From a virus (lineage: Duplodnaviria > Heunggongvirae > Uroviricota > Caudoviricetes): DNA of 7,629 nucleotides. This document shows, in pieces, positions 1-7,629 of the stretch. The stretch covers positions 1 to 7,629 of IMG/VR virus record IMGVR_UViG_2579778674_000002, one strand, 5' to 3'. Both the position numbers and the translations under genes were made by a program. Numbering within the stretch: position 1 is the first letter of the stretch; each line of letters starts with the position of its first letter. The notes under the pieces were generated by a model. It searched no databases. It was not told the origin of the DNA and saw nothing but the letters and a program-made list of their open reading frames with translations.

Positions 1-657
1 TTTTTCCGTGAGAGCTATCCCTTCACCACGGAGAAAGTCTATCTCTCACAAATTCCGGGGCTGGTAAACATGGCGCTGTACGTTTCGCCGATTGTTTCCG
101 GTGAGGTTATCCGCTCCCGTGGCGGCTCCACCTCTGAATTTACACCGGGATATGTCAAGCCCAAGCATGAGGTGAATCCGCAGATGACCCTGCGTCGCCT
201 GCCGGATGAAGATCCACAGAATCTGGCGGACCCGGCTTACCGCCGCCGTCGCATCATCATGCAGAACATGCGAGACGAAGAGCTGGCCATTGCTCAGGTC
301 GAAGAGATGCAGGCAGTTTCTGCTGTGCTTAAGGGCAAATACACCATGACCGGTGAAGCCTTCGATCCGGTTGAGGTGGATATGGGCCGCAGTGCGGCGA
401 ACAACATCACACAGTCCGGTGGTACGGAGTGGAGCAAGCGTGACAAGTCCACGTATGACCCGACCGACGATATCGAAGCCTATGCGCTGAACGCCAGCGG
501 TGTGGTGAATATCATCGTGTTTGATCCGAAAGGCTGGGCGCTGTTCCGTTCCTTCAAAGCCGTCAGGGAGAAGCTGGATACCCGTCGGAGCTTGCCATTG
601 CTCAGGTCGAAGAGATGCAGGCCGTTTCTGCTGTGCTTAAGGGCAAATACACCATGA
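1..657 (+). CDS. E: Major capsid protein (lambda gpE-like), N-terminal part; 5' end lies upstream of the window; authentic frame ends at 587 where an internal duplication shifts the frame (ORF runs out of frame to the stop at 657)
   Basis: Frame 1 is open from position 1 (FFRESYPFTTEKVYLSQIPGLVN-MALYVSPIVSGEVIRSRGG...). The translation matches lambda major capsid protein E as I recall it. After 587 the frame reads a second copy of the same DNA out of frame (…DTRR-SLPLLRSKRCRP…) and terminates. Confidence 0.88.
   Translation, partial: FFRESYPFTTEKVYLSQIPGLVNMALYVSPIVSGEVIRSRGGSTSEFTPGYVKPKHEVNPQMTLRRLPDEDPQNLADPAYRRRRIIMQNMRDEELAIAQVEEMQAVSAVLKGKYTMTGEAFDPVEVDMGRSAANNITQSGGTEWSKRDKSTYDPTDDIEAYALNASGVVNIIVFDPKGWALFRSFKAVREKLDTRRSLPLLRSKRCRPFLLCLRANTP
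280..587 (+). repeat. Copy 1 of a 308-bp imperfect tandem direct repeat internal to gene E
   Basis: Base-by-base comparison with 588-895 at offset 308 gives 8 mismatches (copy-1 positions 285, 315, 395, 402, 423, 438, 441, 483), about 97.4% identity. Confidence 0.95.
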
Positions 658-895
658 CCGGTGAAGCCTTCGATCCGGTTGAGGTGGATATGGGCCGCAG
701 TGAGGCGAATAACATCACACAGTCCGGTGGCACGGAGTGGAGCAATCGCGACAAGTCCACGTATGACCCGACCGACGATATCGAAGCCTACGCGCTGAAC
801 GCCAGCGGTGTGGTGAATATCATCGTGTTTGATCCGAAAGGCTGGGCGCTGTTCCGTTCCTTCAAAGCCGTCAGGGAGAAGCTGGATACCCGTCG
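588..895 (+). repeat. Copy 2 of the 308-bp imperfect tandem direct repeat internal to gene E
   Basis: Same alignment as copy 1. The unit length of 308 is not a multiple of 3, so it produces a +2 frameshift in E. Confidence 0.95.
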
Positions 896-1256
896 CGGCT
901 CTCATTCCGAGCTGGAGACAGCGGTAAAAGACCTGGGTAAAGCGGTGTCCTATAAGGGGATGTATGGCGATGTGGCCATCGTCGTGTATTCCGGACAGTA
1001 CGTGGAAAACGGCGTCAAAAAGAACTTTCTGCCGGACAACACGATGGTACTGGGGAACACTCAGGCACGCGGTCTGCGCACCTATGGTTGTATTCAGGAT
1101 GCGGATGCATTGAGTGAGGGTATTAATGCGTCTCCTCGTTATCCGAAAAACTGGAAGACATCCGGCGATCCGGCGCGTGAGTTCACCATGATTCAGTCAG
1201 CACCGCTGATGCTGCTGGCTGATCCTGATGAGTTCGTGTCCGTACAACTGGCGTAA
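615..1256 (+). CDS. E: Major capsid protein (lambda gpE-like), C-terminal part in frame 3, restored by the second copy of the duplicated segment; TAA stop at 1254-1256
   Basis: ORF 615..1256 translates MQAVSAVLKGKYTMTGEAFDPVEVDMGRSEANN…GSHSELETAVKDLGKAVSYKGMYGDVAIVVYSGQYVENG…FVSVQLA, which continues the gpE sequence to its C-terminus. The first 43 aa repeat residues already encoded at 307-435 in frame 1. Confidence 0.88.
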   Translation: MQAVSAVLKGKYTMTGEAFDPVEVDMGRSEANNITQSGGTEWSNRDKSTYDPTDDIEAYALNASGVVNIIVFDPKGWALFRSFKAVREKLDTRRGSHSELETAVKDLGKAVSYKGMYGDVAIVVYSGQYVENGVKKNFLPDNTMVLGNTQARGLRTYGCIQDADALSEGINASPRYPKNWKTSGDPAREFTMIQSAPLMLLADPDEFVSVQLA

Positions 1257-1257
1257 T

Positions 1258-1285
1258 CGTGGCCCTTCGGGGCCATTGTTTCTCT
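1258..1285 (+). terminator. Stable hairpin (stem tggccc/gggcca with ttcg tetraloop, 1260-1275) followed by a T-rich tract, between the E stop and FI start; possible partial intrinsic terminator or mRNA-stabilising/translation-modulating structure
   Basis: Perfect 6-bp inverted repeat TGGCCC-TTCG-GGGCCA at 1260-1275, then TTGTTTCTCT. It begins 4 nt after the E TAA stop and ends about 22 nt before the FI ATG. Confidence 0.4.
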
Positions 1286-1297
1286 GTGGAGGAGTCC

Positions 1298-1693
1298 ATG
1301 ACGAAAGATGAACTGATTGCCCGTCTTCAGGTGCTGGGTGAGCAACTGAACCGTGATGTCAGCCTGACGGGGACGAAAGAAGAACTGGCACTCCGTGTGG
1401 CAGAGCTGGAAGAGGAGCTTGATGACACGGATGACGCTGCCGGTCAGGACACGTCTGTCAGCCCGGAAAATGCGCTGACCGGGCATGAAAATGAGGTGGT
1501 GTCAGCGCAGCCAGGGACCGTGACTGATACGGCTGCTCTGGTCACGGTTGTGGCACTGGTGACGCTGCATACCGATGCACTTCACGCCACGCGGGATGAA
1601 CCTGTGGCATTTGTGCTGCCGGGAACGGCGTTTCGTGTCTCTGCCGGTGTGGCAGCCGAAATGACAGAGCGCGGCCTGGCCAGAATGCAATAA
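1298..1693 (+). CDS. FI: Head assembly / DNA packaging protein (lambda gpFI-like)
   Basis: ATG at 1298 preceded by GGAGGAG (1289-1295). Translation MTKDELIARLQVLGEQLNRDVSLTGTKEELALRVAELEEELDD…ERGLARMQ matches lambda FI as recalled. The ORF-track start at 1259 (GTG) lies inside the hairpin and has no RBS. Confidence 0.9.
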   Translation: MTKDELIARLQVLGEQLNRDVSLTGTKEELALRVAELEEELDDTDDAAGQDTSVSPENALTGHENEVVSAQPGTVTDTAALVTVVALVTLHTDALHATRDEPVAFVLPGTAFRVSAGVAAEMTERGLARMQ

Positions 1694-1704
1694 CGGGAGG
1701 CGCT

Positions 1705-2058
1705 GTGGCTGATTTCGATAACCTGTTCGATGCTGCCATTGTCCGCGCCGATGAAACGATACGCGGGTACATGGGAACGTCAGCCACCATGACATCCGGT
1801 GAGCAGTCCGGCGCAGTAATACGTGGTGTTTTTGATGACCCTGAAAATATCAGCTATGCCGGACAGGGCGTGCGCGTTGAAGGCTCCAGCCCGTCCCTGT
1901 TTGTCCGGACTGATGATGTGCGGCAGCTGCGGCGTGGAGACACGCTGACCATCGGTGAGGAAAACTTCTGGATAGACCGGGTTTCGCCGGATGATGGTGG
2001 AAGCTGTCATCTCTGGCTTGGGCGGGGCGTACCGCCTGCCGTTAACCGTCGCCGCTGA
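1705..2058 (+). CDS. FII: Head-tail joining / head completion protein (lambda gpFII-like), GTG start
   Basis: GTG at 1705 preceded by GGGAGG (1695-1700). Translation (M)ADFDNLFDAAIVRADETIRGYMGTSATMTSGEQSG…LWLGRGVPPAVNRRR matches lambda FII. Confidence 0.9.
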   Translation: MADFDNLFDAAIVRADETIRGYMGTSATMTSGEQSGAVIRGVFDDPENISYAGQGVRVEGSSPSLFVRTDDVRQLRRGDTLTIGEENFWIDRVSPDDGGSCHLWLGRGVPPAVNRRR

Positions 2059-2069
2059 AAGGGGGATGT

Positions 2070-2648
2070 ATGGCCATACAGGGTCTTGAGCAGGCCATTG
2101 AAAACCTCAGCCGTATCAGCAAAACGGCGGTGCCTGGTGCCGCCGCAATGGCCATTAACCGCGTTGCTTCATCCGCGATATCGCAGTCGGCGTCACAGGT
2201 TGCCCGTGAGACAAAGGTACGCCGGAAACTGGTAAAGGAAAGGGCCAGGCTGAAAAGGGCCACGGTCAAAAATCCGCAGGCCAGAATCAAAGTTAACCGG
2301 GGGGATTTGCCCGTAATCAAGCTGGGTAATGCGCGGGTTGTCCTGTCCCGCCGCAGGCGTCGTAAAAAGGGGCAGCGTTCATCCCTGAAAGGTGGCGGCA
2401 GCGTGCTTGTGGTGGGTAACCGTCGTATTCCCGGCGCGTTTATTCAGCAACTGAAAAATGGCCGCTGGCATGTCATGCAGCGTGTGGCCGGGAAAAACCG
2501 TTACCCCATTGATGTGGTGAAAATCCCGATGGCGGTGCCGCTGACCACGGCGTTTAAACAGAATATTGAGCGGATACGGCGTGAACGTCTTCCGAAAGAG
2601 CTGGGCTATGCGCTGCAGCATCAACTGAGGATGGTAATAAAGCGATGA
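2070..2648 (+). CDS. Z: Tail completion protein (lambda gpZ-like)
   Basis: ATG at 2070 preceded by a G-rich RBS (GGGGGA 2061-2066). The 192-aa product MAIQGLEQAIENLSRISKTAVPGAAAMAINRV… matches lambda Z. The stop overlaps the U start (ATGA). Confidence 0.92.
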   Translation: MAIQGLEQAIENLSRISKTAVPGAAAMAINRVASSAISQSASQVARETKVRRKLVKERARLKRATVKNPQARIKVNRGDLPVIKLGNARVVLSRRRRRKKGQRSSLKGGGSVLVVGNRRIPGAFIQQLKNGRWHVMQRVAGKNRYPIDVVKIPMAVPLTTAFKQNIERIRRERLPKELGYALQHQLRMVIKR

Positions 2649-3040
2649 AACATACTGAACTCCGTGCAGCCGTACTGGATGCACTGGAGAAGCATGACAC
2701 CGGGGCGACGCTTTTTGATGGTCGCCCCGCTGTTTTTGATGAGGCGGATTTTCCGGCAATTGCCGTTTATCTCACCGGCGCTGAATACACGGGCGAAGAG
2801 CTGGACAGCGATACCTGGCAGGCGGAGTTGCATATTGAAGTTTTCCTGCCTGCTCAGGTGCCGGATTCAGAGCTGGATTCGTGGATGGAGTCCCGGATTT
2901 ATCCGGTGATGAGCGATGTCCCGGCACTGTCAGATTTGATCACCAGTATGGTGGCCAGTGGCTATGACTACCGGCGCGACGATGATGCGGGCCTGTGGAG
3001 TTCAGCCGATCTGACTTATGTCATTACCTATGAAATGTGA
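2645..3040 (+). CDS. U: Tail tube terminator protein (lambda gpU-like)
   Basis: The 131-aa product [48 protein letters not shown]…LTYVITYEM matches lambda U. The start overlaps the Z stop by 4 nt. Confidence 0.92.
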
Positions 3041-3047
3041 GGACGCT

Positions 3048-3788
3048 ATGCCTGTACCAAATCCTACAATGCCGGTGAAAGGTGCCGGGACCACCCTGTG
3101 GGTTTATAAGGGGAGCGGTAACCCTTATGCGAATCCGCTTTCAGACGTTGACTGGTTGCGTCTGGCAAAAGTTAAAGACCTGACGCCCGGCGAACTGACC
3201 GCTGAGTCCTGTGACGACAGTTATCTCGATGATGAAGATGCGGACTGGACCGCGACCGGGCAGGGTCAGAAATCCGCCGGAGATACCAGCTTCACGCTGG
3301 CGTGGATGCCCGGAGAGCAGGGGCAGCAGGCGCTGCTGGCGTGGTTTAATGAAGGTGATACCCGTGCCTATAAAATCCGCTTCCCGAACGGCGCGGTCGA
3401 TGTGTTCCGTGGCTGGGTCAGCAGTATCGGTAAGGCGGTGACGGCGAAGGAAGTGATCACCCGTACGGTGAAGGTCACCAATGTGGGACGCCCGTCGATG
3501 GCTGAAGATCGCAGTACGGTAACAGCGGCAACCGGCATGACCGTGACGCCTGCCAGCACCTCGGTGGTGAAAGGGCAGAGCACCACGCTGACCGTGGCAT
3601 TCCAGCCGGAGGGCGCAACCGACAAGAGCTTCCGTGCGGTGTCTGCGGATAAAACAAAAGCCACCGTGTCGGTCAGTGGTATGACCATCACCGTGAAAGG
3701 TGTTGCTGCAGGCAAGGTCAACATTCCGGTTGTATCCGGTAATGGTGAACTTGCTGCGGTTGCAGAAATCACCGTCACCGACAGTTAA
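3048..3788 (+). CDS. V: Major tail tube protein (lambda gpV-like) with C-terminal Ig-like (Big_2-type) domain
   Basis: ATG at 3048 preceded by GAGGA (3039-3043). The 246-aa product [24 protein letters not shown]…AEITVTDS matches lambda V. The C-terminal ~80 aa have the beta-rich T/V/S composition typical of the V Ig-like domain. The ORF-track start at 3018 overlaps U and has no RBS. Confidence 0.93.
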
Positions 3789-3803
3789 TCCGGAGAGTCA
3801 GCG

Positions 3804-4226
3804 ATGTTCCTGAAAACCGAATCATTTGAATATAACGGTGTGAGCGTCACGCTTTCTGAACTGTCAGCCCTGCAGCGTATTGAGCATCTCGCCCTGCTGA
3901 AACGACAGGCAGAACAGGCGGGAACCAGTGTCAATCGACAGGTGAGCGTGGAAGATCTCGTCAGAACCGGTGCTTTTCTGGTGGCGATGTCCCTGTGGCA
4001 TAACCATCCGCAGAAGACAAAGATGCCATCCATGAATGAAGCCGTTAAACAAATTGAGCAGGAAGTGCTTACCACCTGGCCTACAGAGGCAATTGCTCAG
4101 GCTGAAAATGTGGTAATGCGTCTGTCCGGTATGTCTGAGTTTGTTGTGAATGATGCACCTGAACAGGCAGATGACGCCGGGCCTGCAGAGCCTGTTTCTG
4201 CGGGAAAGTGTTCGACGGTGAGCTGA
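3804..4226 (+). CDS. G: Tail assembly chaperone (lambda gpG-like)
   Basis: ATG at 3804 preceded by GGAGAG (3792-3797). The 140-aa product MFLKTESFEYNGVSVTLSELSALQRIEHLALLKRQ…PVSAGKCSTVS matches lambda G. Confidence 0.92.
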   Translation: MFLKTESFEYNGVSVTLSELSALQRIEHLALLKRQAEQAGTSVNRQVSVEDLVRTGAFLVAMSLWHNHPQKTKMPSMNEAVKQIEQEVLTTWPTEAIAQAENVVMRLSGMSEFVVNDAPEQADDAGPAEPVSAGKCSTVS

Positions 4227-4642
4227 GTTTTGCCCTGAAACTGGCGCGTGAGATGGGGCGACCCGACTGGCGCGCCATGCTTGCCGGGATGTCATCCACG
4301 GAGTATGCCGACTGGCACCGCTTTTACAGTACCCATTATTTTCATGATGTTCTGCTGGATATGCACTTTTCCGGGCTGACGTACACCGTGCTCAGCCTGT
4401 TTTTCAGCGATCCGGATATGCATCCGCTGGATTTCAGTCTGCTGAACCGGCGTGAGGCTGACGAAGAGCCTGAAGATGATGTGCTGATGCAGAAAGCGGC
4501 AGGGCTTGCCGGAGGCGTCCGCTTTGACCCGGACGGGAATGAAGTTATCCCCGCTTCCCCGGATGTGGCGGGCATGACGGAGGATGACGTAATGCTGATG
4601 ACAGTATCAGAAGGGATCGCAGGAGGAGTCCGGTATGGCTGA
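3804..4642 (+). CDS. T: Tail assembly protein G-T, made by programmed -1 ribosomal frameshift at GGGAAAG (4202-4208): G frame 3804-4208, then T frame 4208-4642
   Basis: The slippery heptamer G GGA AAG sits in the G zero frame, five codons before the G stop. The -1 frame is open from 4208 to TGA at 4640-4642 and encodes VFDGELSFALKLAREMGRPDWRAMLAGMSSTEYADWHRFY…, the lambda T region. There is no RBS or ATG for an independent T start. Confidence 0.85.
4202..4208 (+). promoter_or_regulatory. -1 programmed ribosomal frameshift slippery heptamer (X XXY YYZ = G GGA AAG)
   Basis: Exact GGGAAAG in the correct phase relative to the G reading frame, with the T frame open in -1. Confidence 0.85.
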
Positions 4643-7067
4643 ACCGGTAGGCGATCTGGTCGTTGATTTAAGTCTGGATGCGGCCAGATTTGACGAGCAG
4701 ATGGCCAGAGTCAGGCGTCATTTTTCCGGTACGGAAAGTGATGCGAAAAAAACAGCGGCAGTCGTTGAACAGTCAATGAACCGGCAGGCGCTGGCTGCAC
4801 AGAAAGCGGGGATTTCCGTCGGACAGTATAAAGCCGCCATGCGTATGCTTCCTGCACAGTTCACCGACGTGGCCACGCAGCTTGCAGGCGGGCAGAGTCC
4901 GTGGCTGATCCTGCTGCAACAGGGTGGTCAGGTGAAGGACTCCTTCGGCGGTATGATCCCCATGTTCAGGGGACTTGCCGGTGCGATCACCCTGCCGATG
5001 GTCGGGGCCACCTCGCTGGCAGTGGCGACCGGTGCGCTGGCGTATGCCTGGTATCAGGGCAACTCAACCCTGTCCGATTTCAACAAAACGCTGGTCCTTT
5101 CCGGCAATCAGTCGGGTCTGACGGCAGATCGTATGCTGGTCCTGTCCAGAGCCGGGCAGGCGGCAGGGCTGACGTTTAACCAGACCAGCGAGTCACTCAG
5201 CGCACTGGTTAAGGCTGGGATAAGCGGTGAGGCTCAGATTGCGTCCATCAGCCAGAGTGTGGCGCGTTTCTCCTCTGCATCCGGCGTGGAGGTGGACAAG
5301 GTCGCTGAAGCCTTCGGGAAGCTGACCACTGACCCGACGTCGGGGCTGACAGCGATGGCACGCCAGTTCCATAACGTGACGGCGGAGCAGATTGCGTATG
5401 TTGCTCAGTTACAGCGTTCCGGCGATGAAGCCGGGGCATTGCAGGCGGCGAACGAGGCCGCAACGAAAGGGTTTGATGACCAGACCCGCCGCCTGAAAGA
5501 GAACATGGGCACGCTGGAGACCTGGGCAGACAGGACAGCGCGGGCATTCAAATCCATGTGGGATGCGGTGCTGGATATTGGTCGTCCTGATACCGCGCAG
5601 GAGATGCTGATTAAGGCAGAGGCTGCGTTTAAGAAAGCAGACGACATCTGGAATCTGCGCAAGGATGATTATTTTGTTAACGATGAAGCGCGGGCGCGTT
5701 ACTGGGATGATCGTGAAAAGGCCCGTCTAGCGCTTGAAGCCGCCCGAAAGAAGGCTGAGCAGCAGACTCAACAGGACAAAAATGCGCAGCAGCAGAGCGA
5801 TACCGAAGCGTCACGGCTGAAATATACCGAAGAGGCGCAGAAGGCTTACGAACGGCTGCAGACGCCGCTGGAGAAATATAGCGCCCGTCAGGAAGAACTG
5901 AACAAGGCACTGAAAGACGGGAAAATCCTGCAGGCGGATTACAACACGCTGATGGCGGCGGCGAAAAAGGATTATGAAGAGACGCTGAAAAAGCCGAAAC
6001 AGTCCGGCGTGAAGGTGTCTGCGGGCGATCGTCAGGAAGACAGTGCTCATGCTGCCCTGCTGACGCTTCAGGCAGAACTCCGGACGCTGGAGAAGCATGC
6101 CGGAGCGAATGAGAAAATCAGCCAGCAGCGCCGGGATTTGTGGAAGGCAGAAAGTCAGTTCGCGGTACTGGAGGAGGCGGCGCAACGTCGCCAGCTGTCT
6201 GCACAGGAGAAATCCCTGCTGGCGCATAAAGATGAGACGCTGGAGTACAAACGCCAGCTGGCTGCACTTGGCGACAAGGTTACGTATCAGGAGCGCCTGA
6301 ACGCGCTGGCGCAGCAGGCGGATAAATTCGCACAGCAGCAACGGGCAAAACGGGCCGCCATTGATGCGAAAAGCCGGGGGCTGACTGACCGGCAGGCAGC
6401 GCGGGAAGCCACGGAACAGCGCCTGAAGGAACAGTATGGCGATAATCCTCTGGCGCTGAATAACGTCATGTCAGAGCAGAAAAAGACCTGGGCGGCTGAA
6501 GACCAGCTTCGCGGGAGCTGGATGGCAGGCCTGAAGTCCGGCTGGAGTGAGTGGGAAGAGAGCGCCACGGACAGTATGTCGCAGGTAAAAAGTGCAGCCA
6601 CGCAGACCTTTGATGGTATTGCACAGAATATGGCGGCGATGCTGACCGGCAGTGAGCAGAACTGGCGCAGCTTCACCCGCTCCGTGCTGTCCATGATGAC
6701 AGAAATTCTGCTTAAGCAGGCAATGGTGGGGATTGTCGGGAGTATCGGCAGCGCCATTGGCGGGGCTGTTGGTGGCGGCGCATCCGCGTCAGGCGGTACA
6801 GCCATTCAGGCCGCTGCGGCGAAATTCCATTTTGCGACCGGGGGATTTACGGGAACCGGCGGAAAATATGAGCCAGCGGGGATTGTTCACCGTGGTGAGT
6901 TTGTCTTCACGAAGGAGGCAACCAGCCGGATTGGCGTGGGAAATCTCTACCGGCTGATGCGCGGCTATGCCACCGGCGGGTATGTCGGTGGCACCGGAAA
7001 CCGGCGGTTATGTCGGTACACCTGGCAGCATGGCGGACAGCCGCTCGCAGGCGTCCGGGACGTTTGA
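4635..7067 (+). CDS. H: Tail tape measure protein (lambda gpH-like); authentic frame runs 4635-6989, then a 28-bp insertion shifts the frame and the ORF ends prematurely at 7067
   Basis: ATG at 4635 overlaps the T stop (ATGGCTGA). Translation MAEPVGDLVVDLSLDAARFDEQMARVRRHFSG… with a hydrophobic segment, a long E/K/Q/A-rich coiled-coil region and a Gly-rich C-terminal region matches lambda H up to …LMRGYATGGYVG, after which the sequence is unrelated (GTGNRRLCRYTWQ…). Confidence 0.92.
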   Translation: MAEPVGDLVVDLSLDAARFDEQMARVRRHFSGTESDAKKTAAVVEQSMNRQALAAQKAGISVGQYKAAMRMLPAQFTDVATQLAGGQSPWLILLQQGGQVKDSFGGMIPMFRGLAGAITLPMVGATSLAVATGALAYAWYQGNSTLSDFNKTLVLSGNQSGLTADRMLVLSRAGQAAGLTFNQTSESLSALVKAGISGEAQIASISQSVARFSSASGVEVDKVAEAFGKLTTDPTSGLTAMARQFHNVTAEQIAYVAQLQRSGDEAGALQAANEAATKGFDDQTRRLKENMGTLETWADRTARAFKSMWDAVLDIGRPDTAQEMLIKAEAAFKKADDIWNLRKDDYFVNDEARARYWDDREKARLALEAARKKAEQQTQQDKNAQQQSDTEASRLKYTEEAQKAYERLQTPLEKYSARQEELNKALKDGKILQADYNTLMAAAKKDYEETLKKPKQSGVKVSAGDRQEDSAHAALLTLQAELRTLEKHAGANEKISQQRRDLWKAESQFAVLEEAAQRRQLSAQEKSLLAHKDETLEYKRQLAALGDKVTYQERLNALAQQADKFAQQQRAKRAAIDAKSRGLTDRQAAREATEQRLKEQYGDNPLALNNVMSEQKKTWAAEDQLRGSWMAGLKSGWSEWEESATDSMSQVKSAATQTFDGIAQNMAAMLTGSEQNWRSFTRSVLSMMTEILLKQAMVGIVGSIGSAIGGAVGGGASASGGTAIQAAAAKFHFATGGFTGTGGKYEPAGIVHRGEFVFTKEATSRIGVGNLYRLMRGYATGGYVGGTGNRRLCRYTWQHGGQPLAGVRDV

Positions 7068-7224
7068 GCAGAATAACCATGTGGTGATTAACAACGACGG
7101 CACGAACGGTCAGATAGGGCCACAGGCACTGAAGGCTGTTTATGACGTAGCCCGTAAGGCGGCAATGGATGTTGTGACCGGGCAGATGCGCGATGGTGGT
7201 CTGTTCTCCGGAGGTGGACGATGA
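6967..7224 (+). CDS. H: C-terminal portion of the tape measure protein H displaced into frame 1 by the 28-bp insertion (H-matching from about 7018); probably not independently expressed
   Basis: The frame-1 ORF encodes …GYVGTPGSMADSRSQASGTFEQNNHVVINNDGTNGQIGPQALKAVYDVARKAAMDVVTGQMRDGGLFSGGGR, the expected gpH C-terminus. Its stop overlaps the M start (ATGA at 7221-7224), as expected for H. Confidence 0.8.
   Translation: MPPAGMSVAPETGGYVGTPGSMADSRSQASGTFEQNNHVVINNDGTNGQIGPQALKAVYDVARKAAMDVVTGQMRDGGLFSGGGR
6990..7017 (+). repeat. 28-bp insertion in H that partly repeats the adjacent sequence (accggcggNtatgtcggt at 6972-6989 and 7000-7017)
   Basis: 18-bp direct repeat with one mismatch, 28 bp apart. 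Removing 6990-7017 restores a continuous H reading frame of 853 codons. Confidence 0.85.
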
Positions 7225-7550
7225 AAACCTTCCGCTGGAAAGTGAAACCCGGTATGGATGTGGCTTCGGCCCCTTCCGTCAGGAAGGTGCGCTTTGGTGA
7301 TGGCTATTCTCAGCGTGCGCCTGCCGGGCTGAACGCCGACCTGAAAACGTACAGCGTGACGCTTTCTGTTCCCCGCGAGGAGGCCACGGCACTGGAATCG
7401 TTTCTGGCAGAGCACGGGGGCTGGAAGGCCTTTCTGTGGACGCCGCCTTATGGCTACCGGCAGATAAAGGTGACCTGCGCAAAATGGTCGTCGCGGGTCA
7501 GTATGTTGCGTGTTGAGTTCAGCGCAGAGTTTGAACAGGTGGTGAACTGA
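7221..7550 (+). CDS. M: Minor tail protein (lambda gpM-like)
   Basis: The 109-aa product MKTFRWKVKPGMDVASAPSVRKVRFGDGYSQRAPAGLNADLKTYSVTLSVPREEATALESFLAEHGGWKAFLWTPPYGYRQIKVTCAKW… matches lambda M. The start overlaps the end of H. Confidence 0.9.
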   Translation: MKTFRWKVKPGMDVASAPSVRKVRFGDGYSQRAPAGLNADLKTYSVTLSVPREEATALESFLAEHGGWKAFLWTPPYGYRQIKVTCAKWSSRVSMLRVEFSAEFEQVVN

Positions 7551-7629
7551 TGCAGGATATCCGACAGGACACACTGAATGAATGCACCCGTGCGGAGCAG
7601 TCGGCCAGCGTGGTGCTCTGGGAAATCGA
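7550..7629 (+). CDS. L: Minor tail protein (lambda gpL-like), 5' part only; continues beyond the window
   Basis: ATG at 7550 overlaps the M TGA (TGATG). Translation MQDIRQDTLNECTRAEQSASVVLWEI matches the lambda L N-terminus. The frame is open to the window end. Confidence 0.8.
   Translation, partial: MQDIRQDTLNECTRAEQSASVVLWEI

Follow-up and report, generated by a model that had tools for sequence, protein, structure and literature searches.

The tape measure gene H of a lambda-like prophage fragment in Escherichia coli FCH1 reads, as deposited, as if 28 extra bases had put it out of frame near its 3' end. Does this lesion belong to the phage, or was it made when the genome was assembled? 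The window, i.e. the whole stretch of DNA that was analysed (7,629 bases), is the entire contig AYKD01000080.1 (7,629 bp) of the draft assembly GCA_000511545.1 of E. coli FCH1. No genome announcement for AYKD01 or FCH1 was found in the literature. Phage genes are interrupted at both contig ends, and the genes are arranged in a lambda-like head and tail row in the order E (5' end missing)-FI-FII-Z-U-V-G-T-H-M-start of L. The H product matches the Pfam families TMP_2 and Tape_meas_lam_C (precomputed matches to the 810-aa form), and its relatives are annotated as phage tail tape measure proteins. The gene sits between the G/T chaperone genes and M-L, the position of H in lambda-like tail gene rows.

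Two further features of the row were observed upstream of H. The sequence GGGAAAG at 4203-4209 is the programmed -1 frameshift site of lambda G/GT; it falls where G (3804-4226) overlaps T (4208-4642), in keeping with what a lambda-like pair of tail assembly chaperones should show. The start of V is ambiguous, since the mechanical open reading frame begins at the ATG at 3018 (3018-3788, 256 aa) while the relatives and the gene caller place the start at 3048 (246 aa, the length of lambda gpV).

The tape measure gene as deposited

The 18-mer ACCGGCGGNTATGTCGGT was found twice in the window, as ACCGGCGGGTATGTCGGT at 6972-6989 (N=G) and as ACCGGCGGTTATGTCGGT at 7000-7017 (N=T), with GGCACCGGAA between the two copies and no third copy. 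In dinucleotide-preserving shuffles of the window, 0 of 200 contained such an 18-mer match. The repeat was thus confirmed as the first-pass annotation had reported it, and so was the net insertion, as alignments to the closest relatives show exactly 28 extra bases. The start of the insertion can be placed equally well anywhere from 6972 to 6980, because the two copies agree over their first 8 bases and do not differ before 6980/7008.

The consequences for the reading frame were mostly as previously described. The ORF list and translation bear out a +1 shift after ...GYATGGYVG and a stop of H at 7067, giving 810 aa in place of 853, with a product that ends ...GYATGGYVG GTGNRRLCRYTWQHGGQPLAGVRDV*. 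By translation, the native C-terminus lies in the ORF at 6967-7224, which reads ...TGGYVGTPGSMADSRSQ...GGGR, i.e. TPGSMADSRSQ...LFSGGGR. Two counts had to be revised: 68 native residues are displaced after GGYVG (7018-7221) and not about 78, and the frame runs on for 25 codons and a stop and not for 26 unrelated codons. The +1 shift after residue 785 thus leaves the C-terminal 68 residues out of the 810-aa product. A continuous H of about 853 codons, including the C-terminal helix that docks at the tail tip, is not encoded by the deposited sequence and is recovered once the 28 bases are removed. The 810-aa form was found on AYKD01000080.1 only, by exact look-up and in a 90% cluster of 26,172 members. 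The coordinates of all features are given in Table 1.

Table 1 Features of the window that bear on the two duplicated blocks.
Feature	Coordinates	Strand	Description and basis
Foreign-allele copy of E segment, 308 bases	279..587	+	RM10042 type at 9/9 informative sites (279-483); BLAST split, site comparison
Own copy of E segment	588..895	+	No mismatches to intact L005-L008, L011
H as deposited	4635..7067	+	810 codons: native to residue 785, then 25 out-of-frame codons and stop; ORF list, translation
28 extra bases	6972..6999	+	18-mer copy (G at 6980) and 10 bases of foreign allele; alignments to EC416, RM10042, Nissle
Spacer GGCACCGGAA	6990..6999	+	Identical, in register, to first 10 bases of Nissle-type H C-terminal module
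Own lambda/EC416-type 18-mer and native H C-terminus	7000..7224	+	+1 frame; native tail 7018-7221, stop 7222-7224; translation
Contig end	7629..7629		One base before C/T site separating backbone from RM10042 and Nissle alleles (L007 10555)

In lambda, residues 818-842 of gpH make up a three-helix coiled coil that rests on the gpI trimer within the lumen of the tail tip (PMC10721106). The counterpart of this coiled coil is lost from the deposited product, so the tail would plausibly be inactivated if the insertion were real. This part of the earlier proposal of an inactivating truncation stands. The other part, that the truncation is biological, is probably wrong, and an assembly artefact is most likely, for reasons given below.

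One reading accepts the frameshift as real and lets the ribosome bypass it, by a +1 shift at the rare tandem codons AAC-CGG-CGG; the product would then be a full-length H carrying 9 inserted residues. Indeed, the ribosome would return to the native C-terminal frame after a +1 shift at any point of 6990-7064, a stretch that includes two rare CGG codons. However, 6990-7064 contains no recognised +1 signal of the prfB-like type (CUU-UGA with an upstream Shine-Dalgarno), the two-frame arrangement occurs in no relative, the sequence was found nowhere else, and a parallel lesion in E has no such rescue. We regard such a bypass as extremely improbable. A programmed ribosomal frameshift was rejected, as neither a conserved slippery or stall site nor a conserved two-frame arrangement was found.

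Allele origin of the 28 bases

The H region was aligned to that of EC416 (L001), the closest complete-genome relative, and to that of Nissle 1917 (L003), which represents the second common allele. The alignments reveal that all H alleles have ...GGCTATGCC ACCGGCGGTTATGTCGGT in common and diverge thereafter into alternative C-terminal modules, with the lambda-type and Nissle-type modules parting exactly after TATGTCGGT. The lambda/EC416-type module continues ACACCTGGCAGC... (TPGSMADS...), whereas the Nissle-type module, with the sequence GGCACCGGAAGTCCGGCGCAAATG..., continues GGCACCGGAAGTCCGGCG... (GTGSPAQMRR...). The Nissle-type module is common: at least 80% of a 58-base query was covered in 1,109 of 5,426 complete genomes.

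The insertion combines these two alleles. Where the local sequence would continue ACACCTGGCA, the bases at 6990-6999 differ from it and equal the Nissle-type allele; by chance, 10/10 bases would match at a fixed position with a probability of about 1e-6. The backbone allele is present on both sides of the insertion, with 0-1 mismatches to L007, an intact relative used for comparison along the contig. The layout at H is therefore backbone, a 10-base foreign excursion, and a restart in the backbone 18 bases upstream.

These alignments do not support the first-pass view of a repeat-associated insertion in a Gly-rich expansion hotspot, because 10 of the 28 bases form the beginning of another H C-terminal module. 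A local tandem duplication would have arisen by replication slippage between short direct repeats in such a hotspot. An 18-base direct repeat with copies 28 bases apart is a classic slippage footprint, and the motif ATGG(F/Y)xG is native twice in the C-terminal region of H. Slippage copies local sequence, however, and 10 of the 28 bases (GGCACCGGAA) are not local in insertion-free relatives but match a different allele. In E, too, the copies of a duplicated block differ at 9 sites that match another allele, and the inserted unit is thus not a copy of the adjacent local sequence. The relatives have a single copy of the 18-mer, so an unduplicated ancestor would have offered no pre-existing direct repeat at the unit ends on which to slip. 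In-frame 27- or 30-bp versions, which the annotation had suggested looking for in related prophages, were present in no collection searched; more broadly, no junction version of 27, 28, 29, 30 or 31 bases was seen in the collections scanned and none in thousands of H genes. We consider slippage very improbable.

The point at which the frame breaks is also a natural module boundary of H. This boundary follows ...GYA(T/D/E/S)GG(Y/L)VG, as seen in window 6955-7060 and in the proteins P0001, P0002, and P0007. At least three C-terminal continuations follow it in E. coli H, namely TPGSMADS, GTGSPAQMRR, and GSGSQAQMRR.

One base of the insertion is not accounted for by either allele. The G at 6980, which is the third base of a Gly codon in the first copy of the 18-mer, was found with these flanks in 0 of 5,426 complete E. 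coli genomes. Nor did these genomes contain a natural Nissle-type allele with this G, either as an exact 28-mer or as a match of at least 99%. Either an unseen second prophage has this G as a private variant, or the base is an error made at what was once a contig end.

The capsid gene and the remainder of the contig

We found a second block of the same design, unmentioned in the first-pass annotation, in the capsid gene E. The window contains a tandem repeat at 280-895 with a period of 308 bases and copies that are 97% alike. The best complete-genome match spans 7,293 bases for the 7,629-base window, and in the BLAST comparison window 1-587 and 587-7629 map onto overlapping parts of the reference. 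Informative sites distinguish the segments. Window 1-278 carries the backbone allele at 3/3 informative sites, the first copy then differs at 1 position from the RM10042 allele and at 9 from EC416, and the backbone resumes from 588, at E coordinate 279/280, with 0-1 differences between the second copy and the backbone. As 308 is not a multiple of 3, E is frameshifted, and it is split into ORFs at 70-657 and 615-1256 in place of a single 341-codon gene. Among complete genomes, the best match to the mosaic of window 1-587 (backbone to 278, RM10042 type from 279) is 99.3%, and none is exact. This tandem block is the strongest clue that the contig is chimeric.

Closer relatives were gathered via the exact gpV protein. 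Both E (341 aa) and H (853 aa) are intact in five of them (L005-L008 and L011), which were taken from independent assemblies (NCBI, ENA, and Logan). Once the two extra blocks are taken out, about 7.3 kb of the window align to L007 with 1 mismatch and no indels, and 7000-7629 has 0 mismatches to L005-L007. The 28 extra bases are missing in all of L005-L013. Removing either copy of each block restores the open frames, and 13 other contigs encode exactly the repaired 853-aa H, which equals annotated E. coli tape-measure proteins in sequence. A second allele-mixed duplication in E, together with the identity of the rest to intact prophages, makes it most likely that the lesion in H is an assembly artefact.

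Two of the relatives differ at the other end of the row. In L009 (1-4250) and L013 (1-2736), the 5' part of E is replaced up to about window coordinate 160, and AlpA-like and Abi_C-domain proteins are encoded instead. Upstream of this segment, L009 carries a different capsid gene and a decoration gene. The AlpA/Abi_C segment in L009 and L013 may be a satellite, or an island, fused to the prophage.

Breakpoints, junctions, and comparison with known systems

Both blocks have breakpoints at sites where natural alleles differ. The foreign E block starts at informative site 279, which is the coordinate at which the second copy restarts, and one of the possible placements of the H insertion begins at the G/T site at 6980. 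The contig itself ends next to an allelic site (Table 1), which suggests that contigs were cut by the assembler at the very positions where repeat copies differ. With the start of the E block and the contig end at such sites, the breakpoints fall at points of allele divergence. Other drafts break in H or at its end (L010-L013), and the proteins P0001-P0011 come from contigs of 200-300 bp that hold only the same part of H. Such frequent breaks mark the region as a common branch point in assembly graphs, and they fit the behaviour of assembly graphs for a genome with several nearly identical prophages.

Neither junction could be found elsewhere. The H junction was present in 0 of 5,426 complete E. 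coli genomes, in which every full-length match spans 273 bases and not 301, and none of the 28-mers across 6960-6999 occurs in these genomes. The E junction is likewise not present in one piece in any of the 5,426 genomes. The H insertion was not found in 50,697 phage records, and the pattern TATGTCGGTGGCACCGG N{0,4} ACCGGCGG, in which 0-4 bases are allowed at the join so that 27- to 31-base variants can be detected, had no match in IMG/VR, GTDB representative genomes, or JGI metagenomes. When the out-of-frame tail was sought among proteins with the last 57 residues, only ordinary or fragmentary tape-measure pieces were recovered and none covered the tail, a weak negative given that 18 candidates were gathered. 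A duplication made during assembly should be missing from independent assemblies of the same element, and this is what we observed.

Taken together, the 28 bases are most likely a false allelic duplication from the assembly of at least two co-resident lambdoid prophages, and not a phage mutation. The copies in each tandem block represent two different natural alleles, RM10042 versus backbone in E and a stub of Nissle type beside backbone in H, and the breakpoints and contig end lie where repeat copies differ, as this explanation predicts. FCH1 would carry at least two lambda-like prophages with near-identical head and tail genes, scattered differences, and different H C-terminal modules. The assembly graph would branch wherever the prophage copies differ, and the contig would contain two branches placed in series, with neither dropped, at a scaffolding, gap-closing, or consensus step. 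In E, 308 bases of the other prophage's allele would have been put directly ahead of the contig's own version. In H, a stub would reach 10 bases into the other prophage's C-terminal module, after which the contig would resume its own allele 18 bases further upstream. Both joins would happen to shift the frame, so that the capsid gene looks broken and the tape-measure gene truncated. We infer both the second prophage in FCH1 and the making of the joins by software; the real prophage most likely has an intact 853-codon H.

Some details stand against an artefact. A simple k-1 overlap does not account for the join between GGAA and ACCGG, the G at 6980 corresponds to no allele in complete genomes, and the 1-587 mosaic has no exact counterpart there. 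A duplication by simple k-1 overlap was itself rejected, as the two 28-base copies differ at 9 of their last 10 bases.

If the sequence were real, two chimeric insertions from a second co-resident prophage would have inactivated E and H and left a freshly defective prophage. The routes to be considered are illegitimate recombination, template switching, or misaligned gene conversion. The deposited sequence reads this way. Cells often harbour several lambdoid prophages, with as many as 10 matching places in one genome, and the insertion point coincides exactly with the position at which these mosaics switch H C-terminal modules. The foreign origin of one copy in each duplication would fit a second-prophage donor equally well. 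Yet two rare events, independent of each other but of the same odd design, would have to have struck within 7.6 kb of a prophage that is otherwise a single mismatch away from intact relatives and whose H protein, apart from the insertion, is identical to intact ones. The join in H offers no useful microhomology for template switching, the 3' end ...CCGGAA being unpaired with ...CCGGCG. Breakpoints and a contig end on allelic sites are expected of graph-based assembly and not of recombination, and neither junction occurs in the other genomes and metagenomes searched. We therefore judge a real pair of insertions unlikely. Its more specific form, in which both lesions are scars of misaligned exchange between co-resident lambdoid prophages, with out-of-register patches knocking out E and H, seems quite unlikely.

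If the truncation were real, the prophage would have been inactivated very recently, and the break in E alone would also abolish capsid formation. Scars of misaligned exchange, if that is what they were, would offer a snapshot of recombination-driven prophage decay before other mutations accumulated. With the false duplication that we favour, the locus indicates that in small draft contigs of multi-prophage E. coli, tandem blocks of two alleles can mimic frameshift mutations and pseudogenes. Copies that match different natural alleles, together with breakpoints at allelic sites, can be used as a flag for such errors, and flagging them would keep them out of statistics on pseudogenes and prophage decay.

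The gene is probably an ordinary gpH gene with an assembly artefact. It resembles lambda gpH (853 aa; TMP_2 PF06791 and Tape_meas_lam_C PF09718) in the gene order E-FI-FII-Z-U-V-G-T-H-M-L and in the Pfam families, and the repaired product has the same length of 853 aa and the C-terminus ...GGLFSGGGR. Unlike lambda gpH, the deposited frame breaks after residue 785, with 68 residues, including the counterpart of 818-842, in another frame. With the mosaic exchange of lambdoid tail genes the locus shares a genuine module boundary after ...GYATGGYVG. Natural switches at this boundary are in register and in frame, whereas here the foreign module lasts for 10 bases only and is followed by a restart 18 bases upstream.

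False ('heterotype') duplications are familiar from genome assemblies, in which a locus with two diverged copies or haplotypes ends up as a tandem, with the copies neither merged nor separated. The diverged copies here would differ from that case in being paralogous prophages in a haploid bacterium and not haplotypes. The likeness lies in independent assemblies of the same prophage that are free of both duplications, a small draft contig bounded by repeats, units made of two alleles, and breakpoints at the points where these alleles diverge.
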